DNA from: a virus
Lineage: Duplodnaviria; Caudoviricetes
Strand: one strand, 5' to 3'
DNA length: 51,241 nt
Virus record (IMG/VR): IMGVR_UViG_3300042363_001418
Coordinates: 1 to 51,241 of that record
Below the pieces are notes generated by a model. That model searched no databases and was not told the origin of the DNA. It saw only the letters and a program-made list of their open reading frames with translations. Position 1 is the first letter of the stretch, and each line of letters starts with the position of its first letter. The position numbers and the translations under genes are program-made. This document shows, piece by piece, positions 8,165-50,987 of this stretch.

Positions 8165-8340
8165 TGTATAAAGGTGTAATTGGTAAATATCGGTTTGAGC
8201 TTGACTCAGAAACAGATCGTGTGATGGTATATAAAGAAGGAGATGGTGTTGAGCCTATTGCTTATATAAATGTTAAGCCTGATATCTCTGAAAAAGGATT
8301 CCATTATGAGATTATGGATTGGGCTGCAAAGCAAAGTTAA
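8164..8340 (+). CDS. Small hypothetical protein (58 aa, not in ORF track)
   Basis: MYKGVIGKYRFELD...AAKQS*; TAATG coupling. Confidence 0.65.
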   Translation: MYKGVIGKYRFELDSETDRVMVYKEGDGVEPIAYINVKPDISEKGFHYEIMDWAAKQS

Positions 8341-8361: not shown

Positions 8362-8607
8362 ATGTTCTGTGGATGTGGAAACCTAGTAGAAGAAGGTCGG
8401 CAGGAGCTCGGTCTTCGTAGTTGTAAGTCGTGTGCTTTTTCTGGTCCAGATATACCTAGACCTCGCGGCGTTATGATTTATGGTCATAAGACCGCTGGAG
8501 AAATCGAGATTCATTCAGCAGATAGCTGGAAAGAGAAGCGCAAATATTACGTGCCAAATTCGGCTAGAAGTTGCGTTAAGAATTTTAGTCGTAGCGTGTG
8601 TTCTTAG
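8362..8607 (+). CDS. Zinc-finger protein (DksA/TraR C4-like)
   Basis: CGCG...RQELGLRSCKSC. Confidence 0.55.
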   Translation: MFCGCGNLVEEGRQELGLRSCKSCAFSGPDIPRPRGVMIYGHKTAGEIEIHSADSWKEKRKYYVPNSARSCVKNFSRSVCS

Positions 8608-9235
8608 AATATCGACAAGCTTTGCTGCAATATTTCTTAGTAGCTAATAAATTTTTTTCAATATACAATACTTTATTACACTTTGAACATGACCATTTAA
8701 TCCTTTGTTCGGAATGTATATAGCGCCACTTAATAGCACACTCTGGAGAACAGTATTGTCTTTTATTAGCTGCGGTCGGAAGTACCTCGAAGTTTTTATT
8801 ACAACCTTTACAGCATAATATTACCTTATTCTCCTGACTTGCATTCTTACAAGCTTGACTACAAAACTTTCGCTTTTGACATTCAAGAGCCTCAAAAGAA
8901 TCCTCGCAATAATCACATACAATATTAACTCTCGGTACATGTAAACGTCTTCGGAGCCATCCATACATTTTATTTTTTCTCCAATACCTGTTTACCTTTG
9001 TATCTTTCGACATTACATCACAAGCTCTTACCAAACGAATGTTTTCAGGATATATCTTTACCAACAATTGATGAGCAACAAAGTGCTCCTCTGGCGTTAA
9101 ATCTACCATATTATCTACTTCATCACTCCCACCCATGCATCTAGGTATAATATGATGGCTTTCTTTATACCCGTCTATTATAGGTCGATGCTGACCACGC
9201 TTCACCAGATGCTCGTATATTAATTTGTAATTCAT
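8585..9235 (-). CDS. HNH homing endonuclease with C-terminal zinc-ribbon repeats
   Basis: ESHHIIPRCMGGSD..DNMVDLTPEEHFVAH; CxxC...YCS..C repeats. Confidence 0.85.
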   Translation of the reverse strand: MNYKLIYEHLVKRGQHRPIIDGYKESHHIIPRCMGGSDEVDNMVDLTPEEHFVAHQLLVKIYPENIRLVRACDVMSKDTKVNRYWRKNKMYGWLRRRLHVPRVNIVCDYCEDSFEALECQKRKFCSQACKNASQENKVILCCKGCNKNFEVLPTAANKRQYCSPECAIKWRYIHSEQRIKWSCSKCNKVLYIEKNLLATKKYCSKACRYSKNTRYD

Positions 9236-9295
9236 GACACATATATTTAATCAAACAGATATGGAGTTTATGCGTAAACTTCCTAAATAACAATT

Positions 9296-9356
9296 AGCCT
9301 AGCAGGTTTTGTCACTTTGTAATTCATGACAGATTTCGCTGTGACCCTGCTAGGCT
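9296..9356 (+). ncRNA. Putative hairpin antisense sRNA to the adjacent HNH start
   Basis: Stems agcctagcagg/cctgctaggct and gtcac/gtgac; loop 9316-9331 is identical to 9224-9239; TAAATA just upstream. Confidence 0.55.
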
Positions 9357-9394
9357 TTAATCTCTCTATAAAGGAACACTATTATAATACTTAT

Positions 9395-9559
9395 ATGCAG
9401 TTAACATTTGAAAATATAGTTGTATTTTTAGCATTTATACTATATACTTGTGTATGTATTGCTCATTGCTATAAACAAAACTACGCATGGGGCGTAGTCT
9501 GGGGAGGGTACGCTGTATCTAACTTAGGCTTGATTGTAGCGCAATCATTAACAAAATAA
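9395..9559 (+). CDS. Small membrane protein
   Basis: Two hydrophobic segments; starts 6 nt after GGAAC promoter at 9373. Confidence 0.65.
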   Translation: MQLTFENIVVFLAFILYTCVCIAHCYKQNYAWGVVWGGYAVSNLGLIVAQSLTK

Positions 9560-19983: not shown

Positions 19984-20257
19984 TCCGACTTAGCTCAGCG
20001 GCAGAGCGGGTGACTGTTGTAATGGCAGCTTAAAGTAGAAATACTTTATGAAAAACTAACCAAATTCGGGGAACGCTTTAAAATGCCAATCCCGAGCGAA
20101 GCCTTGAAAGAGGAACGTGTAGAGACTTGACGGTTGGTATCTTAGCAAGTAATGTTGAAGATAATGAGAAAGTCCAGACTACAAACTGAGAAGGTAGCGA
20201 AAGCTATAGTAGTAGGTAATCACTAGGTCCATGGTTCGATCCCATGAGTCGGAGCCA
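19984..20257 (+). tRNA. tRNA-Asn (GTT), intron-containing; exons 19984-20017 and 20217-20257
   Basis: Spliced product is a canonical 75-nt tRNA with ggtga CTGTTAA tcact and CCA. Confidence 0.9.
20018..20216 (+). mobile_element. Group I intron (199 nt) at tRNA-Asn position 35/36
   Basis: P caaattcggggaa, Q aatcccgagc, R gtagagacttgacgg, S gaaagtcc; P1 ctgt/gcag with U.G at splice site; terminal G. Confidence 0.9.
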
Positions 20258-20381: not shown

Positions 20382-21146
20382 ATGAGTAAAGTTAACGTTA
20401 ATTGCTGCGAATGCGATAAAAAATATCAGGTGTGGCAATATCAGTTAAAATACAAAAAGCATTTTTGTAGCAGGGCTTGTAGAAATAAAAATAAGCAGTA
20501 TACTTGTTGTGCATGTGAAGGTAAATTTTACTCTTCCCAGGAAAGGCTTTTTTGCAGCAGATCTTGTTCTGCAACTGTTAATAATAAAAAAAGAGTAAGA
20601 GCAAAATGGACGGAAGAGCAAAAAAATAATCTTTCTATTATAAAGAAAAATAGCCCGTTCAACAAACGCCATAAACGCGATTTTAGTATTTTACATTACA
20701 AGAAATGCACTATATGCGACTCTGTTTTTTTCGTTAAAAGTAAAAGCTCACCTAAAAAGACATGTTCAGCTAAATGCAGAACCTTAGCATGTAACGGTAT
20801 AAGAACTTACCAGAATGGTTCAAGAAAGCCGAGCTGGTATTTTTGTAAAGATCAAAACAAAAATGTTCTTTTAGAGTCATCTTGGGAAGTAGAGATAGCA
20901 AAGTATCTAGATAATAAAAATATTAAATGGATTAGGCCTGGTCCTATTCCTTATACATTAGATAAAGTTAGACACTATTACCCTGACTTTTATTTAACAG
21001 ATTATGGAGTATTTTTAGATCCAAAAAATCCTTATTGCATGGAAAGAGATAAGGATAAATTAAAAGAAGTTTGTAAAGAAATAAAATTAATTTATGGGCA
21101 TAAAACTGATATAATTAATTATATTAATAATTTAATCTATGCGTAG
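20382..21146 (+). CDS. Free-standing endonuclease (zinc-ribbon repeats plus PD-(D/E)XK/TnsA-like domain)
   Basis: FCSR.C repeats; ESSWE, YYPDFYL, LDPK. Confidence 0.8.
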   Translation: MSKVNVNCCECDKKYQVWQYQLKYKKHFCSRACRNKNKQYTCCACEGKFYSSQERLFCSRSCSATVNNKKRVRAKWTEEQKNNLSIIKKNSPFNKRHKRDFSILHYKKCTICDSVFFVKSKSSPKKTCSAKCRTLACNGIRTYQNGSRKPSWYFCKDQNKNVLLESSWEVEIAKYLDNKNIKWIRPGPIPYTLDKVRHYYPDFYLTDYGVFLDPKNPYCMERDKDKLKEVCKEIKLIYGHKTDIINYINNLIYA

Positions 21147-24165: not shown

Positions 24166-24795
24166 ATGTCTAGTAGATGTTTATACTGCGATGAGATTAT
24201 ACCTAAGCAAGAAAATAGAGGTGAAAAATATAAAAAGATATATTGCAATAGTAGTTGTGCAGCGAGTGCTAATAACTTAAAAGGGAAACACGATACCCTC
24301 TTTAAAGAAAAGCATCATTTGATATTGCAAATGATGGAGGAAGGACTCCCCACCGCAATTATTTCGAAAAAGCTCGGTGTATGTAGAGATACTTTCTTAA
24401 AAAGATATCCTGAATATAAAGATATACTTAAAAAGAGCTCGTTCAAGAAATTATCTAAATCACGCGAAGAATATTATATTAATAAAGCGAAATCAAAAGA
24501 GGAGCGAAAAGAGCAAATATTTGAAGAAATAAAACTAACAGGTAGGTGTGAGTCTGATAAACAATGGAGTTTGCAGAAAAAATGGCTTAAATTGTTCTTA
24601 ATAGAGCGTGACGGTAATAAGTGTTCGCAGTGTAGTTGGTGTGAAAAAAATCCCGTAACTGGTAATATACCAGTTCATATTGATCATATCGACGGTAATA
24701 AGGAGAACAACCATCTCAGCAACGTCCGTATTCTGTGCCCTAATTGTCATTCTCTCACACCAACTTATGGATCAATAAAAAGAAATAGAGATTGA
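24166..24795 (+). CDS. HNH endonuclease
   Basis: CSQC...HIDHIDGNKENNHLSNVRILCPNCHS; start at 24166 after GACTAAATA. Confidence 0.9.
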   Translation: MSSRCLYCDEIIPKQENRGEKYKKIYCNSSCAASANNLKGKHDTLFKEKHHLILQMMEEGLPTAIISKKLGVCRDTFLKRYPEYKDILKKSSFKKLSKSREEYYINKAKSKEERKEQIFEEIKLTGRCESDKQWSLQKKWLKLFLIERDGNKCSQCSWCEKNPVTGNIPVHIDHIDGNKENNHLSNVRILCPNCHSLTPTYGSIKRNRD

Positions 24796-24843: not shown

Positions 24844-25129
24844 GGCCGTGTGATGAAATTGGTAAACATTGCGGACTTAGAGAAATTTGAGTGCCCTGTT
24901 TGAAAAGATAGGAGTAGAACTCGTCAAATTCGGTGAAGGCTTTAAAATGCTAACCCCGAGCCAAGCCTAAGAAATTAGGAAGGTGTAGAGACTAGACGGC
25001 GAGGATCTAAGGTAGAGATACTATGATCAAGGTATAGTCCAGACCACAAACCGAAAGGGTAGTGAAAACTATAGTGGTATGAAAATCCGTTGCTTCGGCT
25101 TGTCGGTTCGAGTCCGACCACGGCTACCA
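24844..25129 (+). tRNA. tRNA-Leu (TAA), intron-containing; exons 24844-24878 and 25082-25129
   Basis: Spliced gcgga CTTAAAA tccgt; long variable arm; CCA. Confidence 0.92.
24879..25081 (+). mobile_element. Group I intron (203 nt), trnL(UAA)-type, position 34/35
   Basis: P caaattcggtgaa, Q aaccccgagc, R gtagagactagacgg, S aaggtatagtcc; P1 actt/gagt with U.G; terminal G. Confidence 0.92.
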
Positions 25130-25642: not shown

Positions 25643-26036
25643 GGGTGCGTTCTGGTTTCGACTGTACGAGTGTCCTATTGATTAGCATGCAGAGGAATGA
25701 CAAGGTTGGCCTCTTAAAAAGCCTTTCAACAAAAACAAACGGCAAAGCTAAAAACGTCGTGAACGCAATCTTCGGTCGCGGTTCCCGTAACGAGTCATTC
25801 GTTGGTGGTGAACTTGCTCTCGCAGCTTAAGTTCTAAAACGCTCAGAGAAAAACCTGCTCTGCTCTGAGTACAAACCAGGTAACCCAAACAGTATGCATT
25901 CTGTCTAATGCATTGGTGGAGGACGAAGTCAATTCGTCCCTAGGAGTGGTTCACCTTAACGAACCAAATATAAGCATGTTTGAAGATCGATAGAAGCTAG
26001 TAGAGGACAGGGGTTCAATTCCCCTCGCATCCACCA
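25643..26036 (+). ncRNA. ssrA: tmRNA; tag (A)GKAKNVVNAIFGRGSRNESFVGGELALAA at 25741-25830
   Basis: GGGTGCG..GGTTTCGAC 5' end, G3:U70, gcatg/gcatg P2 ends, T-arm plus CCACCA, tag ending LAA*. Confidence 0.93.
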
Positions 26037-28283: not shown

Positions 28284-29954
28284 ATGTCATACGCAGAAGG
28301 TTATTTAGATTTTTTAGTAGAGCAGGATAAAAAAAAGGGAAATATACCGCAGATGCCAAAGCGTCTAGGATCTTTAAAACCTCTTAAAAAGAAACAGGGC
28401 GGTAGAGGAGAATATGAAAAAATAGGTAAGCTTATATCTGCTTCAGATAAGGGAGAAGAAGTAGATTATACTGAGGATGGGTTGGTAAAGGTTAACTATA
28501 GTCAATTAGGTAGAGCTTTAGATACTTTAGATAGTTTACCTACGAAAAGAGGTATGGGGTACACCTCAATGATTTACGGTGAAGCGGGTATAGGTAAATC
28601 ATCTATAGTAGAATCAAGAGGAATAAAGATAGCGTCTGACTTAGGTAGACAATTCATAAGATTAGATGAATACTTATCAAAATTTCAAACGATAGGAGAA
28701 TTCATAGATAACCTTAAAGGCTTTTATATATTCATTGATGAACGAGCAGCGGGCTTTGATCCTTCAATGATGTCAGGTATACCTGATCCTACATCTCCTG
28801 AACGTAAAGGATATTTGACTGAGCTTCCCGTACCCTGGGTATCAGTAATGACAACTTCAAGCGATTCTGCTGGAATGTTATTTTTAGACGAGTTAAACCA
28901 AGCAAGTGAGCAAGTACAAAATATGCTTTTCTCTCTTACAAACTTTGAAGAGCGTAGAATAGCCGGTAAATATAAAATTTTAGGAGATTGGAGAATTCAC
29001 TGCGCGGGTAACTGGGGTGAAGGTTACAGTATTATACCTCTAGTACCTGCTCTTAAAGAGCGTCTTGCTCCTTATTACTTAGAGCTTGATTTTAAAGGCT
29101 GGCAGGACTGGGCAATTAATAGTAAGAACGTAAATGGTGAGTCTCTTATACACCCCTTGTTAATGGATTTTCTTGAAGACGAACCAGATAAGAATTTTTA
29201 TGATAGACCTTCTAGTGAAACTGACCCAACGAAGCGTCCTAACCCTCGTAACCTAGTTGCTTTATCTGGAGCTATTTACGGTCAAATTGGCTCAGGATCT
29301 AATTTAGAGTCTGTCGATAGTGATAGATGGAGAGAGATTATCGCTTCTGCAGGAGCTTTATGCGGTAAAGAATTTGGTAATAATTTCAAACAATTCTTAG
29401 TATCTAACGCTTTAGTAGATATTAACGAGCTTTTAGAAGATCCTTCAAAGCTAATTAACGTAAAAGGGGGAAGAGCAGGAGAGGGTATAGTAACCCAAAA
29501 CATTTCTGTGTTTAAGCGCAACTTAAAGCAGCACGTTGTTACTTTTGACAATAAACTTAATACTCTCAAATCAGATGAGGAAAAGGATGATATGATTAAT
29601 CTAGCTCTATATTACATGGATGTAATTAACTCTGTATTTAGAGTAGAGCCTAGCACTGCATCAAATATATTCACAGTAATAACTAATAGAGCTACTCTAC
29701 CAGATCTTAAAATTTATAGAAATCTCTTAGTAGGTAGCCTTAAGAGTAAAGGCGATAATGACTCTGCAAAATTCGTTATGGATCTAATTAATGACATAGT
29801 AAGTGAAGTAAGCGGAAATGTTAAGGCGTTTACTTCACCTGACGAGGGTGAAGAGAGCGAAGCAACCAACTCTCAAGCAGTAGGTAAAATAGATCAAATC
29901 CTCAGTAAGTTTAATAAAAATATTGCAGCAGGAAATATACCTCAATATGTATGA
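28284..29954 (+). CDS. MoxR-like AAA+ ATPase
   Basis: GEAGIGKS, LFLDELNQA, AGN, PALKER, PNPR. Confidence 0.85.
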   Translation: MSYAEGYLDFLVEQDKKKGNIPQMPKRLGSLKPLKKKQGGRGEYEKIGKLISASDKGEEVDYTEDGLVKVNYSQLGRALDTLDSLPTKRGMGYTSMIYGEAGIGKSSIVESRGIKIASDLGRQFIRLDEYLSKFQTIGEFIDNLKGFYIFIDERAAGFDPSMMSGIPDPTSPERKGYLTELPVPWVSVMTTSSDSAGMLFLDELNQASEQVQNMLFSLTNFEERRIAGKYKILGDWRIHCAGNWGEGYSIIPLVPALKERLAPYYLELDFKGWQDWAINSKNVNGESLIHPLLMDFLEDEPDKNFYDRPSSETDPTKRPNPRNLVALSGAIYGQIGSGSNLESVDSDRWREIIASAGALCGKEFGNNFKQFLVSNALVDINELLEDPSKLINVKGGRAGEGIVTQNISVFKRNLKQHVVTFDNKLNTLKSDEEKDDMINLALYYMDVINSVFRVEPSTASNIFTVITNRATLPDLKIYRNLLVGSLKSKGDNDSAKFVMDLINDIVSEVSGNVKAFTSPDEGEESEATNSQAVGKIDQILSKFNKNIAAGNIPQYV

Positions 29955-30829
29955 GAATATTTAACGAGCAATTTAAAGAACTCTTAAAATTATATCCTAA
30001 TGATGAGGGATGTAAGAAGGCTTTAATATTTTTAGAGCAGGATGTCTCGCCTGATAATTCTAAATGGACAGAAGAAAGAGTTAAAAAATTTATCGCTGGC
30101 TTACGCTTTACAGTAAAAAAAAGAAATCCTTATTTTGGACATCTACTTGACAAGGTTCCTATTATTGTAGTATCTCCTAACGATCCTCATATACAGACTA
30201 TGGCGGTAGATAAAGACCATAACCTTTATATTAATCCAGAATTCACTCAAAATATTATGTCTGGTGTCGTACCAGGTATATTTGACGATGAAGCTGTAAA
30301 CGCTAATAAAGAGGAAGAGCCTGAAGAGGGCACATATTACACTCTATCAGAAGGTGAAAAGGTCTTTCTCGGTATCATAGCTCATGAGCTTATGCATATC
30401 TTCAAAGATCATGTAGCTAGAATGACAGAAAGCTACAGACGAATGGTCAATTTAGGAGGCAATCCTATCTCATTGTGGAACATAGCTACAGACGCAGAGA
30501 TAAATGATGAACTTATATACAAGTGGGGATACTCCTTAATTAGAGATGGTATTATACCTAAACCTGACGGTAGTCTTGAAATAGGAGGTCAAGTGTTTAA
30601 AGTTAGAGGTAAGACACCAGAGAGAATATATAGAGAGATAGAAGCAACGTTACCTCCATCTGAATCCGAGTCAGGCGGGTCATCACCTCCGCAGGAGCCT
30701 CTCCAGCCAGGAGATATTATCTACGATGAAGCGTCTGGTAGATATGGTGAGATAGTTACAATAGATAAAAAAACTGGTAGAGCTAAGATAGCTGAAATAA
30801 CAAAAGAGGAAGCAAAATCTAGAGTTTAA
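29951..30829 (+). CDS. DUF2201-N-like metallopeptidase
   Basis: PYFGHLL, TMAVD..LYINPEF, IAHELMH, WNIATDAEIN. Confidence 0.85.
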   Translation: MRIFNEQFKELLKLYPNDEGCKKALIFLEQDVSPDNSKWTEERVKKFIAGLRFTVKKRNPYFGHLLDKVPIIVVSPNDPHIQTMAVDKDHNLYINPEFTQNIMSGVVPGIFDDEAVNANKEEEPEEGTYYTLSEGEKVFLGIIAHELMHIFKDHVARMTESYRRMVNLGGNPISLWNIATDAEINDELIYKWGYSLIRDGIIPKPDGSLEIGGQVFKVRGKTPERIYREIEATLPPSESESGGSSPPQEPLQPGDIIYDEASGRYGEIVTIDKKTGRAKIAEITKEEAKSRV

Positions 30830-30830
30830 T

Positions 30831-31925
30831 ATGAAATCATTTACTTCAAATTTAAGCGACTTGAAAAGAGTTGTAAAAGGTACAAAGAGTGATAGCGATG
30901 GCGGTGCAGAGCCTTCAAGTGATATGCATGTATTACCTGATGATGATGCAGATGAGGATAAAAAGCCCGGTAAGGGTGAAGGCGAGGGAGAGCCTAAGCC
31001 TGGTGAGCAGGGAGAAGGAGAAGGTAAGGGTAAGTCTAAAGATTCTCAGAGCGCTCCAAAAATAACCATAACAGGTAATCCACAACCTATTGTTGATATA
31101 ATTCCTAAAGATAAAGATACTAGCGGAATTAAGGGATTGGCTGGTTCTAATGAAAAAGGTACAACACCTCTTTCTCCAGGTGACATTAAAAAAGCACTAG
31201 AGGATGCGCAACAAGCTGAAGCTACAGAGCAGCGCGGTCAAGAAGGTATAGGTAAAGGTTTAGGTGGTAGGAGAATATCTGTACCTTCTGACTTTCCAAC
31301 TAAAACTGACTGGGCAAGGTTAATGATTAATCTGCTTCAAAAGACAAAAGTAGGTCCACCTTCTTGGGCTAAAGCTCATAAACGTACCTTTGGAATGAAA
31401 GTAGGAGGTTCACCTTTAATGATTCCTGGTAGGGATGTAGAGAAGGATGTAGGTAAAATAATAGTAGCTATAGATACGTCTGGGTCTATTAGTGATGCTA
31501 TTGTAGGTGGGTTCTTAAGCGAGTTGAGAAGAATATTCGAAACGTTTAAAACCAGTGCAGGATTTGCTTGTAAAATTATTTTATGGGCTGACGGTCCTTA
31601 TGCTGTATCTAATGACTTCAATATAAAGCAATTTGAAGATCTTAAAAGGTGGGTATTTTCTAATATGGTTTCAGGTGGCACTTCTATTGATCCTGTTGTA
31701 AAATTAATTAATAGTTTATCAAACTTAAAAGATTATGTCGGTACAGTATGGTTTACAGACGGTCAAATAGGTGATCTAGAAACCATGTTACCTAATAATT
31801 TTAACATTTTTGTAATTAACGGGTTTGAGGCAGAATATACTAGACAATTCTTTTCAGATCTTAAAAAATTCAAACCTGCTAAACAAATTACCGTAGTAAA
31901 AACCTCCTACGGGTATGGATCTTAG
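30831..31925 (+). CDS. DUF2201-like vWA-domain protein
   Basis: AIDTSGSI MIDAS, GGT, FTDG; G/E/K-rich linker. Confidence 0.85.
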   Translation: MKSFTSNLSDLKRVVKGTKSDSDGGAEPSSDMHVLPDDDADEDKKPGKGEGEGEPKPGEQGEGEGKGKSKDSQSAPKITITGNPQPIVDIIPKDKDTSGIKGLAGSNEKGTTPLSPGDIKKALEDAQQAEATEQRGQEGIGKGLGGRRISVPSDFPTKTDWARLMINLLQKTKVGPPSWAKAHKRTFGMKVGGSPLMIPGRDVEKDVGKIIVAIDTSGSISDAIVGGFLSELRRIFETFKTSAGFACKIILWADGPYAVSNDFNIKQFEDLKRWVFSNMVSGGTSIDPVVKLINSLSNLKDYVGTVWFTDGQIGDLETMLPNNFNIFVINGFEAEYTRQFFSDLKKFKPAKQITVVKTSYGYGS

Positions 31926-35631: not shown

Positions 35632-36375
35632 TTATAATTTTATTGCATTTTTAATACTTGTATAATATCTTCCTTGTGCTCCAGCCCAGCCTAGCCTTTT
35701 ACAAATTGCATTTAAGCTGACTCCGTTTGAATGTAATTGTTTTATTAAACTTAAATTGTCTTTTATAGTATTATCTATTTTATTCATTTTTTCTTTATGA
35801 GCCGCTTTACATTCTTGTGAGCAATATCTATTAAAGATACGTCGAGATTTAGCTTCAAAGGAAATAGAATTAAAGAGCTTATCACAGTGCTTACACTTTA
35901 ATTTTGTTTTGTCGAAATTAATTACTCTACCTCTTTCCCAACCGCTACGCAAAAATGTATCTATTTGTTCATTTTTAATTTTTTTACTGACTTGTAGTTC
36001 TTTCGAAAATACCCATGTTGTACCGTATTGATTGTTAGAAGCTCCTTTTTGTTTCAAAGATATTTGCTTAGAGTATTTTGTTCTCAACCATCCGTATAAT
36101 CTATTTTTCGAATACTTCCTGCCTTTATTGCATTTACTTGAAACAGTCATCATCATTGCTGCATGAGTTAATTTTATATTGTTAGGATATACTTTTATTA
36201 ATAATTGATGCGCTATATAGTGCTCGCGTGGTGTCAAAAATACTAAATTTTCTTTTTCATCGCTTCCACCTACACATCTCGGTATAATATGATGTTTTTC
36301 GTAGTACTGGTCACTAATTAACTCCCTATTAATAGATCTATTAATTAAGTTATTATAAGCTGCGCCATAATTCAT
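35632..36375 (-). CDS. HNH homing endonuclease
   Basis: EKHHIIPRCVGGSD..NLV.LTPREHYIAH. Confidence 0.85.
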   Translation of the reverse strand: MNYGAAYNNLINRSINRELISDQYYEKHHIIPRCVGGSDEKENLVFLTPREHYIAHQLLIKVYPNNIKLTHAAMMMTVSSKCNKGRKYSKNRLYGWLRTKYSKQISLKQKGASNNQYGTTWVFSKELQVSKKIKNEQIDTFLRSGWERGRVINFDKTKLKCKHCDKLFNSISFEAKSRRIFNRYCSQECKAAHKEKMNKIDNTIKDNLSLIKQLHSNGVSLNAICKRLGWAGAQGRYYTSIKNAIKL

Positions 36376-36887: not shown

Positions 36888-37577
36888 TTAATTTCTGCGT
36901 CTTATAATTAACAGAGCAGCTAATCCTAGAGGTAAAAGCATTGAGGTGCTTATTTCTGGTATAGCAGGTTGTCCTATAATAACACCTTCAACGTTTGGAG
37001 CTGCCTCGTTAATATAGAATGCATCCATTCCAAAGCAGAATGCCCCTTCGCCGTAGATGCGGAACAGATCGATGTTATCAAACTCATTATTTAAAATGAT
37101 ATTTGATACCTCACCAATGCCCCAGTCTTCGCTAGGTAACATATACGGAGCTGTTACTGCTGCACCATTACGGTAACCTTGAACGTAAATATGCTCATGA
37201 CCTGAAGCTGTTGCTCCTCCGTGTTGTGTATTAGATGTAATAATGAAGTAGTTAAGATCAAAAGTTGAGCCATTGATACTATGAATGTCGATTGACTCTA
37301 ATCCAGATACCCAGTGACCGTGAATAACATCATTATCTGACCCATCATAATAACTACCTACAGTTTGTGGAGAGTAATCACCTGTAGAAGATACGTAATT
37401 CAATTGAAAGCCACTCTCAACATATGACACTATATTAAAATAGATTCCGTTTTGAGTAGTTACGTGTGTATTGTTGTTAGCATCTGTTGCAGTGCCTCCT
37501 GTAAAGGTTATAACTGCTGCTTCTGCACTGAACATCATCAATGCACCGATTAGTGTTGTTAGTATTGTTTTTTTCAT
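36888..37577 (-). CDS. PEP-CTERM sorting-domain surface protein
   Basis: Signal peptide; C-terminal AIPEISTSMLLPLGLAALLIIRRRN. Confidence 0.8.
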   Translation of the reverse strand: MKKTILTTLIGALMMFSAEAAVITFTGGTATDANNNTHVTTQNGIYFNIVSYVESGFQLNYVSSTGDYSPQTVGSYYDGSDNDVIHGHWVSGLESIDIHSINGSTFDLNYFIITSNTQHGGATASGHEHIYVQGYRNGAAVTAPYMLPSEDWGIGEVSNIILNNEFDNIDLFRIYGEGAFCFGMDAFYINEAAPNVEGVIIGQPAIPEISTSMLLPLGLAALLIIRRRN

Positions 37578-39611: not shown

Positions 39612-39833
39612 ATGAAGAAGAACTGTGAAACCTGGTCAGAATACCTCGCAAATCCAAATGTGCGTCCTAAAACCTTTAACCTTACCGTTCAGCGCAATCA
39701 GCGTGGTGAGTTTGAAGTTGTTGGTCGCGGCGCTTATATGAAGCACGATATGGGCGGTAAAGCGGAATGGGTGAGTGTTGATGCTCGTGATATTGCTCGT
39801 GCTATCCGCAACAGCGGCATTAGCGCTAAGTAA
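39612..39833 (+). CDS. Hypothetical protein, paralogue of 40592-40813
   Basis: W.EYL.N.NVRPK.FN...EWV.VD.RD.ARA.RN. Confidence 0.75.
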   Translation: MKKNCETWSEYLANPNVRPKTFNLTVQRNQRGEFEVVGRGAYMKHDMGGKAEWVSVDARDIARAIRNSGISAK

Positions 39834-40455
39834 TAATAAACAAACTAATAACCGCTCTCTCTGCTTGCGCGGAGAGAGCTTTTTTTGTTCTTTGTCTTTG
39901 TGAAATGCTCATTTTATTGCGTGTTTCAGTAGATACTCCGTTTTTATACTTACAAGCAGCACTGCAAAATTTTCTAATTCCTTTACTTTTATAGTCAGTA
40001 AACTCGCAAATGCATTCTACACATCTATGTGTAAGTTTTTGTGTACTATTTTTATGTGCTAGAGACCTACACCTATAGCTACAGAAAGTAAACATTTTTA
40101 TGTAGTAGGGTCGTACGTTCTGCTCTATACCGCATTGTTTACATTTAAACACTACCCGTTCTTTAGCCTTATGCTCACTCAACCTCTCTTTAATCCACCC
40201 ATATAATTTATTATTACAAAACCTATTACCGCTCATTTTCACTAAAGCATAAACCAACTTAGGATTGTTTGGATGTATTTTGACAAGTAGCTGATGAGCT
40301 AGATAATGCTCTTCTGGAGTCAAATCCACTAAATTAGATACATCGTCTTGTCCTCCTAAACATCTAGGTGTAATGTGATGTCTTTCTTTGTAGCAATTAA
40401 GGGTTCTTTCTTTAGCTCTGCCTATAATTCTCTCGTATATTTTTTGGTAGTTCAT
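39826..40455 (-). CDS. HNH homing endonuclease with zinc-ribbon repeats
   Basis: ERHHITPRCLGGQD..NLVDLTPEEHYLAH; start MNYQK at 40455 (alternative 40464). Confidence 0.85.
   Translation of the reverse strand: MNYQKIYERIIGRAKERTLNCYKERHHITPRCLGGQDDVSNLVDLTPEEHYLAHQLLVKIHPNNPKLVYALVKMSGNRFCNNKLYGWIKERLSEHKAKERVVFKCKQCGIEQNVRPYYIKMFTFCSYRCRSLAHKNSTQKLTHRCVECICEFTDYKSKGIRKFCSAACKYKNGVSTETRNKMSISQRQRTKKALSAQAERAVISLFIIT
39854..39886 (+). terminator. Rho-independent terminator
   Basis: gctctctctgc ttgc gcggagagagc ttttttt. Confidence 0.75.
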
Positions 40456-40491
40456 GTCTCGCATTATTATTTATAAAAGATAAATAACTTT

Positions 40492-40558
40492 ACGCTATTC
40501 TTGGTTTAGTAAATTCATGTCTCGCACACATTTTTTAGCTTAATTCCAAGAATAGCGT
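40492..40558 (+). ncRNA. Putative hairpin antisense sRNA to the adjacent HNH start
   Basis: Stem acgctattcttgg/ccaagaatagcgt; loop 40514-40526 is identical to 40451-40463; TAAATA at 40481; T-tract follows. Confidence 0.55.
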
Positions 40559-40591
40559 TGTTTTTAAATAGGAACTATCGTATAATTAGGT

Positions 40592-40813
40592 ATGAAGAAA
40601 CAAAATGAAAGTTGGGCAGAGTACCTCAATAACAAAAACGTGCGACCAAAACAATTCAACGTCACCTTCCGTCGTACCACGACTGGTGAGTTTGAGATCG
40701 TTGGTCATCAAGCATTCATGGAAGCCAATCAAGGCCGCACTTCCGAGTGGGTCCGCGTTGACTCCCGCGACCTTGCTCGTGCCCTCCGTAACAATGGTAT
40801 CATTGTTAAGTAA
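40592..40813 (+). CDS. Hypothetical protein, paralogue of 39612-39833
   Basis: Shared motifs; GGAAC promoter at 40571. Confidence 0.75.
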   Translation: MKKQNESWAEYLNNKNVRPKQFNVTFRRTTTGEFEIVGHQAFMEANQGRTSEWVRVDSRDLARALRNNGIIVK

Positions 40814-45950: not shown

Positions 45951-46385
45951 GTGAGACGAAATAAAAAACATACTAAAATAAGATATACCGGCTTATTTTT
46001 AGGTAACGATCAAGAGGTTCAGAACATCTGGTCTCACGAGGAGCTAGATTATTATTCTAAAAACATCAACCCTCTAACTGAGGAAGATTTAGTAAGTGTT
46101 AATGATGAAGGTCTTAGAGCATATAAGAATGTAAACAATTATAGTATAATGTATGTAAATGGTAAGAGAGAGCTTGGTCCTATTATAACTATACCTGAAC
46201 CGCATCCATTGTTTAATTGTCATTACATTTACAGCGAGGAAGAATTTGACTTTGGAAGAATGCAGGGCGTTACCAAAGATCACCCAATAAATGATGCTAT
46301 TGAAGTAATTATGGATCAAGTTGGTCCGTTTTTTGATAGTATTGAATATGTAGATGTAACCAATAGATACACTGAAGAGCAATGA
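45951..46385 (+). CDS. PETHPLFN-family paralogue
   Basis: IRYT; IPEPHPLFN; GACTAAATA upstream. Confidence 0.75.
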   Translation: MRRNKKHTKIRYTGLFLGNDQEVQNIWSHEELDYYSKNINPLTEEDLVSVNDEGLRAYKNVNNYSIMYVNGKRELGPIITIPEPHPLFNCHYIYSEEEFDFGRMQGVTKDHPINDAIEVIMDQVGPFFDSIEYVDVTNRYTEEQ

Positions 46386-46699
46386 GATACGCACTATTAG
46401 ATTTAAGAGGTACATCTGTCGTTAGCTTTCACGATCACAACGATACAGTTGAGCATTTGACTAAGTGGGGAAGCAAAAAAATAACACTAGGTAGTCGAAC
46501 TGTAAGACCTATAAAACATGAGGACGGGGTAATAGAATATAAGTTCTCTGAAGCATCATACTCTTTCTTTTTGCCCGAAGCTCACCCACTATATAATAGC
46601 GCAGTACTTTTTAACTCTTTTAATTTTCCTTTAAACGTACAATCGCAACAAAAAGCTAGAAATGCTATTATAGATCATTTAAGACAACTAAGACACTAG
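46382..46699 (+). CDS. PETHPLFN-family paralogue
   Basis: MRYA; LPEAHPLYN. Confidence 0.75.
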   Translation: MRYALLDLRGTSVVSFHDHNDTVEHLTKWGSKKITLGSRTVRPIKHEDGVIEYKFSEASYSFFLPEAHPLYNSAVLFNSFNFPLNVQSQQKARNAIIDHLRQLRH

Positions 46700-46745
46700 T
46701 TAGCGCTGAAGCTATATTATTTAAGTCGCAAGACTAAATATGTAA

Positions 46746-47018
46746 GTGAGATACAGGTTGTTTGATAGGTTTAATGAGTCTACATTCGCTAACAACGATG
46801 TATACCCTGATGATTTTGTTGATGCTAATGCAGAAGTAAACAAATATAAAACATCTAGGGACTTGGTAAAGTTTATGAAGAGTGGTACCACCACCTTTTA
46901 TTTTATACCAGAAACTCATCCGCTGTTTAATTACGGTTTAGACTTTAATGTGAGTGATGAAGCACACGAACATCTTCAAATGGTTATAGGTAAACAACTA
47001 AAATTGATATCTAAATGA
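46746..47018 (+). CDS. PETHPLFN-family paralogue
   Basis: MRYR; IPETHPLFN. Confidence 0.75.
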   Translation: MRYRLFDRFNESTFANNDVYPDDFVDANAEVNKYKTSRDLVKFMKSGTTTFYFIPETHPLFNYGLDFNVSDEAHEHLQMVIGKQLKLISK

Positions 47019-47335
47019 GATACACAAGTATAGAAAGATATGGTGATACTACTGTTGCTAATAAGCAGCTGGTTACCTCTGAGTATTTCAAGAAAAAAGC
47101 CACAAAAGACAAGCACCCAACTCCAGCGGCTGATGGTATTATATACTATATGCCATATACTGACCTCGCTACTATTTTCGTACCTGAAACACATCCGATC
47201 TTTAACTATTCTATGCTGGTGTATTCAGATGGGTACGCAAAGATTCACAGAGACAGGGTATATAAGGGTGATACTACCCTAGGTAACGATATGGTGGTCA
47301 TGGTAAATAAATTTGGTGATAGTGTAATTATATGA
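47015..47335 (+). CDS. PETHPLFN-family paralogue
   Basis: MRYT; VPETHPIFN. Confidence 0.75.
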   Translation: MRYTSIERYGDTTVANKQLVTSEYFKKKATKDKHPTPAADGIIYYMPYTDLATIFVPETHPIFNYSMLVYSDGYAKIHRDRVYKGDTTLGNDMVVMVNKFGDSVII

Positions 47336-47655
47336 GATACTCAGTAGCAGCAATTAACTTTACAGTTAAACCTGATCCTAACTCTCATGTACACACATAC
47401 AACTATATGGATTATGTAAAGTACAAAGATTTTTGGATAGGTGAGAATGCTGAGTTTAAAGGAGAACTAAAGGGAGGAGTAAAGGTATACTTTCTTATGG
47501 GTGTAGGTATAAATCAACATATTTATATAATACCCGAAACACATCCGCTATTTAATTATAGCTTTGTACCTGATTACCTTTTACAATATAGAGAGGATAC
47601 TGTTTCTTTCTATAAAACAATTAAAAGGGTAGGGTGGAACATGCTAAATAAATAA
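47332..47655 (+). CDS. PETHPLFN-family paralogue
   Basis: MRYS; IPETHPLFN. Confidence 0.75.
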   Translation: MRYSVAAINFTVKPDPNSHVHTYNYMDYVKYKDFWIGENAEFKGELKGGVKVYFLMGVGINQHIYIIPETHPLFNYSFVPDYLLQYREDTVSFYKTIKRVGWNMLNK

Positions 47656-47659
47656 GTAA

Positions 47660-48019
47660 ATGAGATACTCTTATATACAAATAACTGGCACTTTTTATCA
47701 GCCGTACTTCTATGTAAACGATGCGAGTAATTCTGTTGTTGAATATATAAAAAGAGAATTTGATTTTGTGGGTGCGTTAGATGGTGGTATTGAAATGTAT
47801 CTTGAGAAAGAGTTTTCTAGAGCTGCTCTCGTTCCAGAGACACATCCGCTGTTTAATTGCGGAGTAATATATAGTGCAAGTAAGTCATCTGATTTCTCGA
47901 CAGAGGGTGTGGGCACAACAGAGCAATACAGCAATATGAATAGGATGATCGAGAATGAGTATATTGTAAAGCTTTTAGATTTAATAGAAACAGCCCGCTC
48001 AAAGAATAAAAAGCCATGA
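47660..48019 (+). CDS. PETHPLFN-family paralogue
   Basis: MRYS; VPETHPLFN. Confidence 0.75.
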   Translation: MRYSYIQITGTFYQPYFYVNDASNSVVEYIKREFDFVGALDGGIEMYLEKEFSRAALVPETHPLFNCGVIYSASKSSDFSTEGVGTTEQYSNMNRMIENEYIVKLLDLIETARSKNKKP

Positions 48020-48318
48020 GACAATCCGCAATACTAACATCATTTGCTACAAGCTCTGGCACTATAAGAGCTATGTCTAGTACAGAGTATAGAGAGAAAG
48101 ATATACGGCTAGATATGAATAAAAGTAACTACAAGGGTAAGTTTGAGGATGGTACAGAGCTATATGCAGGTATAAATAGCTATTATTATATAATACCTGA
48201 GTCGAGCCCTCTCTTTAATTTTTACTTAGTTCCTGAAAATTTGCAAAGTATTGAAAGAAAAGATTATCATAATTTCCTTAGAGACATTAGAAAAATGGTA
48301 GTTGACGTGACTACATAA
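48016..48318 (+). CDS. PETHPLFN-family paralogue
   Basis: MRQS; IPESSPLFN. Confidence 0.75.
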   Translation: MRQSAILTSFATSSGTIRAMSSTEYREKDIRLDMNKSNYKGKFEDGTELYAGINSYYYIIPESSPLFNFYLVPENLQSIERKDYHNFLRDIRKMVVDVTT

Positions 48319-48380
48319 TAGTTTGTTGATGAAATAGTTTTTGTATCGCTCTAGTAAGGGAACTCTCATACAATAAGCGT

Positions 48381-48647
48381 ATGAAAGAAAGAAAGCCTAC
48401 TAAGAGAGATATTGCTAAGATTCTAGGTCGTCGCGTTGGTGGGTGGAATGACAAACGCACCGATCATAATCGTATTAAGCTTACTGATCAACTCTCGCAC
48501 AATACTATGATGCGTCTAGATAGTGAACTACATTGCATGTTCGAAGACTATAACTTCTGTATAGGGGATGTTATCTGGAAGTCTCACTTTGGCGGTAAGC
48601 GAGTTGTTACCGCAGTCAGATATTGGAAGAGGGGAACTCCAGTATAA
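48381..48647 (+). CDS. Hypothetical protein
   Basis: GGAAC promoter at 48359. Confidence 0.65.
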   Translation: MKERKPTKRDIAKILGRRVGGWNDKRTDHNRIKLTDQLSHNTMMRLDSELHCMFEDYNFCIGDVIWKSHFGGKRVVTAVRYWKRGTPV

Positions 48648-48653
48648 TAAGGT

Positions 48654-48800
48654 ATGAAGAAGATCAAACAACGAACCTTCGATTACTCTCCGATTGCTCT
48701 TAGAGCTCTAACACGCCACAAGCTTGCTCCTCCTACTAAGTTCTTTACAGATAGGAAGAAGCAAGCTTCAAAGGCCGCATGCAGACATAAGGAACACTGA
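48654..48800 (+). CDS. Small basic hypothetical protein
   Basis: Promoter at 48633; ends KEH* inside the next promoter. Confidence 0.6.
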   Translation: MKKIKQRTFDYSPIALRALTRHKLAPPTKFFTDRKKQASKAACRHKEH

Positions 48801-48812
48801 TAGAATAAACAT

Positions 48813-48989
48813 ATGGAAATTGACACCGTTGAACAAACTATTGAGAAGCTGATGACCACCATCAACAAGCTTACTGCAGTGACACATACAGCTATCGATC
48901 ATATCGATTGCGATACAAAGAGCAAAGAGCGTATGGAACTCCGCGACCAGCTCCTCGGTATTCTCAAGTATCATCACGCGCAGTATTAA
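48813..48989 (+). CDS. Small hypothetical protein
   Basis: Promoter at 48791. Confidence 0.6.
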   Translation: MEIDTVEQTIEKLMTTINKLTAVTHTAIDHIDCDTKSKERMELRDQLLGILKYHHAQY

Positions 48990-49016
48990 ACTAAAGGAAC
49001 TCCAATACAATTAGGT

Positions 49017-49160
49017 ATGAAAGAGACGTTCATAGTAATCGTCGGAGAGGGAGATGAGAAATTCAGCGTGTATTACGATGACTATGGTAATGCCGCAGAG
49101 TGCGCTCTAAGTTATAGAGAGCAGGGACAAAAGGTAAGGGTTGAGACAAAGGAACACTGA
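49017..49160 (+). CDS. Small hypothetical protein
   Basis: Promoter at 48996. Confidence 0.6.
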   Translation: MKETFIVIVGEGDEKFSVYYDDYGNAAECALSYREQGQKVRVETKEH

Positions 49161-49172
49161 TATAATCTTTAC

Positions 49173-49313
49173 ATGGAAGAGGATAAAAAGAAACAATTCG
49201 AAGAGCGTTTCAAACTATTCGAAGAATGCTGTGATATTGTTGATAGAGTCTTAGAAGAGAGACGTGCAGGTGCTTATGATGAGCAAATGAAAATAGTTCG
49301 TAAGGAACACTAA
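49173..49313 (+). CDS. Small hypothetical protein
   Basis: Promoter at 49151. Confidence 0.6.
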   Translation: MEEDKKKQFEERFKLFEECCDIVDRVLEERRAGAYDEQMKIVRKEH

Positions 49314-49325
49314 TATAATAAGAGT

Positions 49326-49511
49326 ATGAAACAGGACATCGACACCACATTCACTGTTACCTGGAAGTCGGTAACGCAAAGAGACCGGAAGACAGTTATG
49401 TTCAGCAAGCAGAGTGATGCAGAGGAATTCTACAAATTGAAGAAAGATAAAGACAGATTTCCTGCTCTCTACATTACTGAAAAGATCACCTCTACACGCC
49501 TACTGAAATAA
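49326..49511 (+). CDS. Small hypothetical protein
   Basis: Promoter at 49304. Confidence 0.65.
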   Translation: MKQDIDTTFTVTWKSVTQRDRKTVMFSKQSDAEEFYKLKKDKDRFPALYITEKITSTRLLK

Positions 49512-49540
49512 AAGGAACACCAATATAATAACATAACAAC

Positions 49541-49738
49541 ATGACCAACGAATACAATAACCTGATTGATGGGCTTAAGAAAGTGCTTGAAGCTAATGGC
49601 TACCGCAAAGGAACTAAGGCAGCTCGTACTTGCGAGTATAGCTTCCTTCAAGGAGCAGCTGTAGCAAATCCTGAGCTGATTAAGAATCATCCGATGATCT
49701 ATATCAGCATTGTGTCAGGACGTTCGATTCTTGACTAG
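49541..49738 (+). CDS. Small hypothetical protein
   Basis: Promoter at 49514. Confidence 0.65.
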   Translation: MTNEYNNLIDGLKKVLEANGYRKGTKAARTCEYSFLQGAAVANPELIKNHPMIYISIVSGRSILD

Positions 49739-49739
49739 T

Positions 49740-49874
49740 ATGAGTAGTTCAGCAAAGAGCAAAGGCGGTGTCAAGACCGTTCAATGGTGGAAGCATCTAC
49801 GCAAGTACTGGGGACGCGTGCAGAATAAGCGTGTGCGTAAGGATGGTAAGAAGGAAATACAGAAGGAACTCTGA
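49740..49874 (+). CDS. Small basic hypothetical protein
   Basis: QWWKHLRKY..R..NKRVR. Confidence 0.6.
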   Translation: MSSSAKSKGGVKTVQWWKHLRKYWGRVQNKRVRKDGKKEIQKEL

Positions 49875-49886
49875 TAGAATAAGAGT

Positions 49887-50108
49887 ATGACCGAAGAATA
49901 CATTCGCACCACCCTGCAGGTTCATCTCGAGAATGGTGATTCATTTACCACAGGTTTCAACTTGACGCCTGAGATGTTCAAGGGCAAGACAGTTCAAGAG
50001 ATCGTTGATAACTACTATGTCAATAGGAACTATTACACTCACGACGAAATCGCACACCGCATCACTCATGTTGATATACTTGGTGTAGCGGATGTGATTA
50101 CTGCATAA
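49887..50108 (+). CDS. Hypothetical protein
   Basis: Promoter at 49865; ENGDSFTTGFN. Confidence 0.65.
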   Translation: MTEEYIRTTLQVHLENGDSFTTGFNLTPEMFKGKTVQEIVDNYYVNRNYYTHDEIAHRITHVDILGVADVITA

Positions 50109-50130
50109 GGAACTCCGATAGAATAAGAGT

Positions 50131-50301
50131 ATGAACACTACCAAGATCGAAACACTCCAAGAGGTCAAAGAGAGACAATCACTGTGGCTGCCATGGATGG
50201 AAGAGAGTACAAAAGGATTGACACCAACATCTATGGTAGAGACAACTACTAAGGTACTGCCGTTCGGTAGATATCTGCTATCGATTACACCGGTAGACTA
50301 A
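50131..50301 (+). CDS. Small hypothetical protein
   Basis: Promoter at 50109. Confidence 0.5.
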   Translation: MNTTKIETLQEVKERQSLWLPWMEESTKGLTPTSMVETTTKVLPFGRYLLSITPVD

Positions 50302-50644
50302 ATAAGTGAGTGAGATATTCGGTTATAGAAAGATGGAATGAAGATATGGCTGTACCTAGTGTACGATTAGTAGATCCTAACGATCTCAAAAACCATAACA
50401 TACTTTCAGGTTCAGAAGGTGTATTACACTACAAGCAGAGTCGTGCACGTTCAACTTACTCTATCCTTATACCCGAAACACACGCTCTTTTTAACTACTC
50501 ATTGCTTGCTGCAAAACTTTCTTACGAGCTTGTTGCACATTCTACTGCAAGTGATAATCTTCAAAGTCTGATAGTAAATTTCGCTAATACGGTCATTACA
50601 CCTCCTAGAGAGAACTCCGGTAGACTAAATAAGTGAGTGAGATA
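50290..50644 (+). repeat. 28-bp perfect direct repeat (50290-50317 and 50617-50644)
   Basis: ccggtagactaaataagtgagtgagata, comprising late promoter plus GTG start. Confidence 0.9.
50310..50636 (+). CDS. PETHPLFN-family paralogue
   Basis: MRYS; IPETHALFN. Confidence 0.75.
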   Translation: MRYSVIERWNEDMAVPSVRLVDPNDLKNHNILSGSEGVLHYKQSRARSTYSILIPETHALFNYSLLAAKLSYELVAHSTASDNLQSLIVNFANTVITPPRENSGRLNK

Positions 50645-50987
50645 CTCAGGCGTAACAGTATATGGAGAGCTAGGACCCCTTGGCGGGTTCAATATAGTCA
50701 TCGATACTAAAGATGGTACAGAGCAAGCGCTTGAGTATGAGAACTACGAAGAAGCTGATTTTTATAAGGAAACAGATGATGGTGTAAGGATATACACTAT
50801 GAGTAATCATTCAGATCAGTCATACGGAAATGTACCACCAAGAGTATTCTTCATACCAGAGACGCACCCGCTGTTCAATCTATATAGAATAGAATTAAGT
50901 AACGAGCGATTTGAGTTTCTTAAACCACCTCGCGGAAAAGTTATTGATGATAGTGTAACGAATGAACTATTGACTATGATTAAATAA
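50637..50987 (+). CDS. PETHPLFN-family paralogue
   Basis: MRYS; IPETHPLFN. Confidence 0.75.
   Translation: MRYSGVTVYGELGPLGGFNIVIDTKDGTEQALEYENYEEADFYKETDDGVRIYTMSNHSDQSYGNVPPRVFFIPETHPLFNLYRIELSNERFEFLKPPRGKVIDDSVTNELLTMIK

Follow-up and report, generated by a model that had tools for sequence, protein, structure and literature searches.

A predicted late antisense hairpin RNA paired with HNH homing endonuclease genes in mobile cassettes of T4-like phages

The window, that is, the whole stretch of 51,241 nucleotides analysed here, comes from a 51-kb virus record and contains, at locus 1, an HNH homing endonuclease gene and, upstream of its start, a hairpin whose loop carries a copy of the start region of that same gene (Table 1). 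The HNH identity proposed in the preliminary description of this locus is borne out: the ORF, of 216 aa, falls into phrog_655 (E 8.6e-41) and is similar to T4 MobE (60% identity over 63 aa) and MobB (38% identity over 134 aa). Its N-terminal HNH domain is akin to those of the two T4 proteins, with H27, H28, N42, H51 and H55 invariant across 37 homologues; a Pfam search with the protein at E 0.001 gave no match.

Table 1. Features of locus 1 and of the second locus, in coordinates of the window
Feature	Position	Strand	Remarks
Host gene A, 81 aa	8362..8607	+	last codons, 8590-8607, come from the cassette
HNH homing endonuclease gene, MobE/MobB-like, 216 aa	8585..9235	-	Cys-rich C-terminal repeats; inverted relative to its neighbours
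Mobile cassette	8590..9391	.	802 bp in place of 5 nt of the empty allele; alignment to L354 and L371
Target: predicted mRNA 5' end and first four codons	9224..9239	-	start predicted at 9238, 3-nt leader; TAAATA spacing rule
TAAATA, predicted late promoter of nuclease gene	9244..9249	-	motif present at 15/15 loci
TAAATA, predicted late promoter of hairpin RNA	9284..9289	+	located in the sequence; stem starts downstream
Predicted small RNA	9296..9362	+	11-bp outer stem, inner 5-bp stem, 25-nt loop, short pyrimidine tail
Antisense element, 16 nt, in loop	9316..9331	+	exact copy of the nuclease start region
Early-type promoter of gene B, GGAAC-N5-TATAAT, cassette-borne	9371..9391	+	gene B ATG at 9395
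Second HNH gene, like design	39826..40455	-	7-nt predicted leader; target 40451-40463; TAAATA 40468-40473
Second predicted hairpin RNA	40492..40564	+	TAAATA 40481-40486; 13-bp stem; 13-nt antisense 40514-40526; z -5.39

Relatives of the window phage delimit a mobile cassette at locus 1. Among 19 relatives found via the downstream gene, 17 match on the right side only, and two (L354 and L371) have both flanks without the insert, aligning with the window up to 8589 and again from 9392. The nuclease and the hairpin are jointly absent from these empty alleles, in which gene B overlaps the stop of gene A and the C-terminus encoded by gene A reads NFSKSICS, as against NFSRSVCS in the window; besides the nuclease, the hairpin and both TAAATA motifs, the cassette brings a new end for gene A and, for gene B, an early-type promoter. 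Four metatranscriptome runs from one study contain relatives, two with the empty allele, and RNA contigs of relatives from two runs jump across 8549-9392; at low depth and with at most 8-13 short contigs per stretch, these runs showed no cover of either nuclease gene or hairpin, a result that bears on their expression in neither direction. In L371, which is 98% identical to the window upstream, another cassette of nuclease plus hairpin, different from that of locus 1, lies about 270 bp off, at a point where the window is empty. Given the occupied and empty alleles of the window and L371, the nuclease and the hairpin travel as a single insert at both sites, and the element is an optional insert with empty alleles in relatives, as is characteristic of free-standing homing genes of the MobE/MobB type.

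The L371 cassette (L371:1839-2535, on the same contig as the hairpin locus L041, compared with window 8323-8335), in an otherwise near-identical phage, is inserted at the 3' end of the gene before it and gives that gene a new end. A recoded target to the left of the insert in the occupied allele was considered and dropped, the empty allele L354 being identical to the window there. The early-type motif, GGAAC-N5/6-TA[CTG]AAT, occurs at 29 sites in the window, with an ATG 5-6 nt downstream in 24 of them; there are 29 copies in contig G004 and 1-5 in the other contigs.

The hairpin of locus 1 is formed by outer arms at 9296-9306 and 9346-9356 and by an inner stem of 5 bp (9311-9315 with 9341-9345), with a predicted folding energy of -27.2 kcal/mol (z -5.99) that none of 200 shuffled sequences equalled or surpassed. 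The preliminary description had placed one copy of a 16-mer across the minus-strand ATG and an exact repeat in the loop of a strong hairpin, and both copies and the arms were located where it had put them, with the ATG at 9235. The same applies to the plus-strand TAAATA, and the minus-strand TAAATA lies at 9244-9249, one base off the reported position (about 9243-9248). Of 20,000 sequences sampled from a Markov model of the 170 nt upstream, none had an ATG-containing copy of 16 nt, the longest such copy being 14 nt. The opposite strand of the hairpin also folds (z -5.72), so that fold energy cannot assign the hairpin to a strand. The hairpin RNA matches no family of Rfam 15 at the gathering score, and the hairpin DNA had no match in cultured phages.

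Besides the second locus of like design, the window contains a third MobE-like paralogue (35632-36375, minus strand), also inverted and fully leaderless (TAAATA-N5-ATG). No hairpin copy of its start was found, which makes this gene an internal negative control and indicates that such a hairpin RNA is not required by an inverted gene of this kind. The second cassette sits between two paralogous short genes (39613-39831 and 40594-40812), each with its own early-type promoter; a joint in an RNA contig that runs from 39621 to 40655 across this locus was set aside, as the paralogous flanking genes may produce it. Elsewhere in the window, two group I intron matches (20008-20197 and 24869-25063) lie in a tRNA cluster by leaderless nuclease-like ORFs (20382-21146 and 24166-24795), followed by a tmRNA gene (25643-26036). 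An ATPase gene and, after it, further ORFs occupy 28284-31925, the latter resembling, as we take it by eye, a metallopeptidase and a VWA protein. A PEP-CTERM-like protein is encoded at 36888-37577 on the minus strand (NF038120, below the cut-off), and a row of short paralogous ORFs with MRY starts and a common PETHPLFN-like motif spans 46382-50987.

The design of locus 1 recurs at 15 loci, two in the window and 13 elsewhere, and comprises back-to-back TAAATA motifs, a hairpin of 65-80 nt about 6 nt past its TAAATA, and a loop that tracks the start of its own gene. For this survey, the upstream sequence of 196 distinct HNH starts, 130 nt or more in each case, was scanned for a loop copy; a strict filter (copy of at least 9 and perfect stem of at least 8) gave 13 loci, and L006 and L091, with copies of 14 and 16 nt and imperfect stems, were added by inspection. 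The loci were chosen by similarity and by the TAAATA pattern, so that 15 of 196 is not to be read as a frequency. When the scan was repeated blind to the stem, a copy of 13-14 of 14 nt was found at the 15 loci, and only one of the 181 other starts reached 13 or more, without a stable fold. There are 13 distinct target strings among the 15 loci, whose proteins are 41-82% identical over 96 aa; at L005, where the gene starts with Met-Gln, not Met-Asn, the loop matches this start. The preliminary description had pointed to co-variation of loop and gene start in homologues as a check of its proposal, and at all 15 loci the loop does follow the start of its own gene. The outer stems diverge in sequence and keep their pairing. 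In six related RNAs, to which counts of compensatory pairs were restricted (a MAFFT alignment of all 15 was not useful), 5 of the 11 outer pairs have changed on both sides, and all cells pair, compared with at most 61.5% when the arms are slid.

Back-to-back TAAATA motifs accompany 15/15 hairpin loci vs 24/181 of the others, and the gene is inverted relative to both flanks at 10 of 12 scorable hairpin loci vs 13 of 152 others, by crude ORF calls. A quick tree search (194 rows, 107 columns) gave 12 changes vs a shuffled mean of 14.6 and placed the RNA-bearing genes in no supported clade; they may have a single origin. A loose DNA pattern revealed no further case among the 120 stretches listed, a second HNH pattern (13 stretches) returned known cases only, and L041 was the one case among the 38 stretches of a gene-agnostic pattern, with no other gene family showing the design. 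None of 26 GTDB loci examined has it, and eight genes of named phages, including T4 mobB and mobE, contain no copy, the best agreement being 10 of 14. In the cultured coliphage RB32 (L504, 801-1517), an inverted mobB-like gene with a longer leader has a TATAAATA of its own and no antisense copy. At eight further loci (L014, L017, L019, L022, L025, L039, L042 and L100), leaders are 12-13 nt long and, by eye, an inverted repeat around the TAAATA could mask a GGAG-type site. One protein family seems to use both the T4-like cis strategy and that of a separate hairpin.

The late promoter of T4 has TAAATA as its core. In seven of the eight sequences compared, TAAATA-N5-ATG is the commonest TAAATA-to-ATG spacing, and a pyrimidine precedes the ATG in 109 of 116 such cases (overlapping regions may double-count a few). 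Contigs G001 and G002, with a median of 70% identity over 15 and 17 of the 44 window proteins, encode homologues of T4 gp55 and gp47, and gp55 homologues were found in four of the seven related contigs; the gp55 search of the window itself gave no match. We infer that the TAAATA motifs serve as late promoters of the gp55 type and that transcripts start at about TAAATA+6, which would yield near-leaderless or leaderless late mRNAs. The near-leaderless nuclease mRNA envisaged in the preliminary description gains support from the spacing peak in these phages, its start being a predicted one.

The position of the match relative to the promoter is informative about its target. Match registers were anchored on the ATG, so that the match to the AUG is partly built in; the edge of the match is not. 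Between TAAATA+5 and TAAATA+15, 11 positions in all, each of the 15 loops can pair throughout; at the next three positions 14, 14 and 12 of the 15 can, in contrast to 7 of 15 at TAAATA+4. This edge is the same with leaders of 3-7 nt, and leader length correlates with the 5' extent of the match (Spearman 0.85, the loci not being independent). As the edge is constant from TAAATA whatever the length of the leader, the target appears to be the predicted 5' end of the mRNA, not the AUG. The four mismatches within the core are all T-to-C and all compatible with G-U pairing, an argument that is weakened by the general frequency of T-to-C changes. On the side of the hairpin, the stem begins at TAAATA+6 at nine of the 15 loci and at +4 to +7 at 14, which is where the transcript would be expected to start. 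The base at TAAATA+5, one ahead of the predicted mRNA start, is pairable at 15/15 loci and needs an additional explanation, for instance that transcription begins a base earlier, that this base stacks or that it pairs with DNA; at L041, just 10 pairable nucleotides are counted from the predicted start.

Pairing energies and scans at larger scale agree largely with a cognate relation. For 13 of the 15 RNAs, the best-ranking duplex is the cognate one. Net binding energies, opening costs included, are -9.9 to -16.6 kcal/mol over the matched stretch, with non-cognate medians of +0.9 to -7.5; for three of the 15, a non-cognate mRNA scores equally well or better. These values are limited to the matched stretch: when the duplex was allowed into the stems, they ranged from +3.4 to -18.3, and co-folding, a method that cannot represent pairing within a closed loop, gave 0 to -6.1 kcal/mol. 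Of 10,841 candidate starts, drawn from seven contigs and the window, only six had a copy together with a stem and a reverse TAAATA, all of them HNH genes (the strict stem rule passed over L006); six other matches had no reverse TAAATA. An unbiased scan of 1,153 TAAATA sites in eight phage sequences yielded eight large hairpins, for seven of which the 5' end of the adjacent HNH gene is the best target; the eighth lies inside a coding region.

We consider it likely, on the evidence of sequence comparison, that the hairpin encodes an antisense RNA, late and trans-encoded, which takes hold of the nuclease mRNA by its 5' end and blocks translation of this mRNA. Under this mechanism, both TAAATA motifs would act as late promoters, with transcripts beginning about 6 nt downstream, and the nuclease mRNA would have a leader of 3-7 nt, too short for a T4-style cis hairpin. 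The free 5' end of the mRNA would thread into the closed loop, as in the RNA-IN/RNA-OUT pair of IS10, and the resulting duplex of 10-17 bp would cover the AUG. Nuclease synthesis would thereby be subject to a threshold, and the RNA, through its action in trans, could also damp sister copies within one cell. With the same promoter class predicted for both RNAs, timing alone gives no off-to-on switch.

The preliminary description had set this design apart from the cis hairpins of T4, and this distinction holds, given that on the nuclease strand the copy has the same sense as the start and lies outside the predicted mRNA, upstream of the nuclease promoter. With an inverted gene, its own late promoter and a leader of 3-7 nt, a cis hairpin masking the ribosome-binding site would be unavailable. 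The hairpin RNA does not overlap its target on the opposite strand either: the promoters are back to back and the predicted transcripts lie apart. With the predicted start sites, the loop is complementary to its target's 5' end, as in systems of the RNA-OUT type, and the putative RNA is complementary to the initiation region of its partner mRNA, as in type I systems. The likeness to a type I antitoxin drawn in the preliminary description is thus sound for the wiring and goes no further.

Several other readings were weighed against this antisense mechanism. The RNA might act on transcription: alone or with a protein, it would pair at the nuclease promoter, within the initial bubble, with either the non-template DNA or the nascent RNA. 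Short-match CRISPR-like RNAs act on transcription in comparable fashion; here, the match keeps its place relative to the promoter, is of guide-like length at 13-14 nt and at every locus takes in the base that precedes the predicted start. We nevertheless regard this as unlikely: the hairpin RNAs share no conserved scaffold sequence that a protein might bind (one invariant column, 43% column identity), the C-terminal domains of the hairpin-bearing nucleases differ (NUMOD3 in L059, Cys-rich repeats in most), and the mRNA 5' end accounts for the anchor more simply. It is similarly improbable that the RNA is a reprogrammable, promoter-anchored repressor whose loop is rewritten for each nuclease gene and which acts at the start site, with the nuclease as its carrier or not; if true, this would be RNA-directed silencing by a homing cassette without a CRISPR or OMEGA protein.

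We give equally little credence to the view that the hairpin serves only as a terminator or insulator, against transcription running on from gene A, or that the repeat consists of two DNA operators, the copy being left over from a local duplication. Most stems have a pyrimidine tail after them and the cassette supplies a new promoter for gene B, but T4 terminators, as presented in PMC2988022, have 4-nt loops, compared with about 20-25 nt here; the hairpin may have an additional role as a terminator. I-TevI of T4 is described as autorepressing at an operator (PMC2988022), whereas here no operator resembling the homing site was found: with the stretch around the insertion point standing in for the cleavage site, the promoter region agrees with two empty sites at 12-13 of 20 positions, the null being about 13. 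A relic would not track 13 different starts as the stems diverge, nor would it end at the predicted start site. A true toxin-antitoxin role, for which the wiring of zorO-orzO (divergent, 18 nt; PMC3919570) and RalR-RalA (DNase, 16 nt; PMC4041452), so far as described there, provides parallels, appears very improbable, as the elements are inserts with empty alleles in T4-like phage genomes, which is the pattern of homing genes. Least credible is the guide-like alternative of the preliminary description, an OMEGA-like RNA bound by the nuclease as guide or cofactor, which draws on weak, HNH-only matches to IscB (23.9 bits vs a cut-off of 175; E 0.07-0.4 in the PDB) but found no support, as the 216-aa protein covers only positions 186-243 of 314 of the IscB profile and lacks the full IscB architecture, the RNA-bearing genes form no supported clade, the sole match of the RNA is the element itself, and its agreement with the two empty sites, 10-11 of 16, is at the level of shuffled sequences (about 11), which argues against a homing guide.

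In the literature searched, mostly outside subscription journals, we found no small-RNA regulators of homing endonucleases. We propose that the principle at work, antisense control of a mobility enzyme by a hairpin loop, is a known one, and that the new aspect is a non-overlapping, co-evolving unit suited to near-leaderless mRNAs. The antisense mechanism would add a likely trans-encoded RNA to the cis hairpins, operators and terminators that control phage homing endonucleases, in a setting where near-leaderless messages have no space for a cis hairpin. The natural pairs of loop and target, with their 13 variants, offer a ready set for the study of antisense shutdown of near-leaderless mRNA and of how a selfish gene, as it diverges, retains a brake of its own that still fits. 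The pairs could also serve as small orthogonal repressors, and the loops predict mRNA start sites in uncultured phages.

The RNA-OUT of IS10 is transcribed from the strand opposite its target, so that complementarity is automatic. In the system described here, by contrast, the promoters face apart and the match is a separate copy of 10-17 nt that must co-evolve with its target. The likeness lies in the loop: that of RNA-OUT, as described in PMC4737173, takes the unstructured 5' end of the transposition mRNA and blocks translation, and the loop predicted here would capture the mRNA 5' end of the element's own mobility enzyme. The C4 RNA of phage P1 is a phage antisense RNA that represses an adjoining gene, as is predicted here, but it is reported to control lysogeny (PMC8198154), and the present hairpin is without any Rfam match. 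With the control of T4 homing endonucleases, as set out in PMC2988022, the present loci share the MobE/MobB family, late promoters, a cassette promoter for the downstream gene and the limitation of the nuclease. In the T4 system, according to the same source, control hairpins lie in the mRNA itself, over the ribosome-binding site, the genes are co-oriented except for segD, and the account, so far as its available text goes, includes no small RNA; the nucleases considered here are, in contrast, inverted and near-leaderless, with a separate predicted antisense unit. Compared with zorO-orzO, in which OrzO pairs through its own 5' end and not a closed loop (PMC3919570), and with RalR-RalA, in which RalA requires Hfq and RalR is non-specific (PMC4041452), the mode of pairing and the partners differ; the predicted unit resembles both, as portrayed in these sources, in a non-overlapping small RNA with cognate-specific complementarity of 15-18 nt, and RalR, too, is a DNase.
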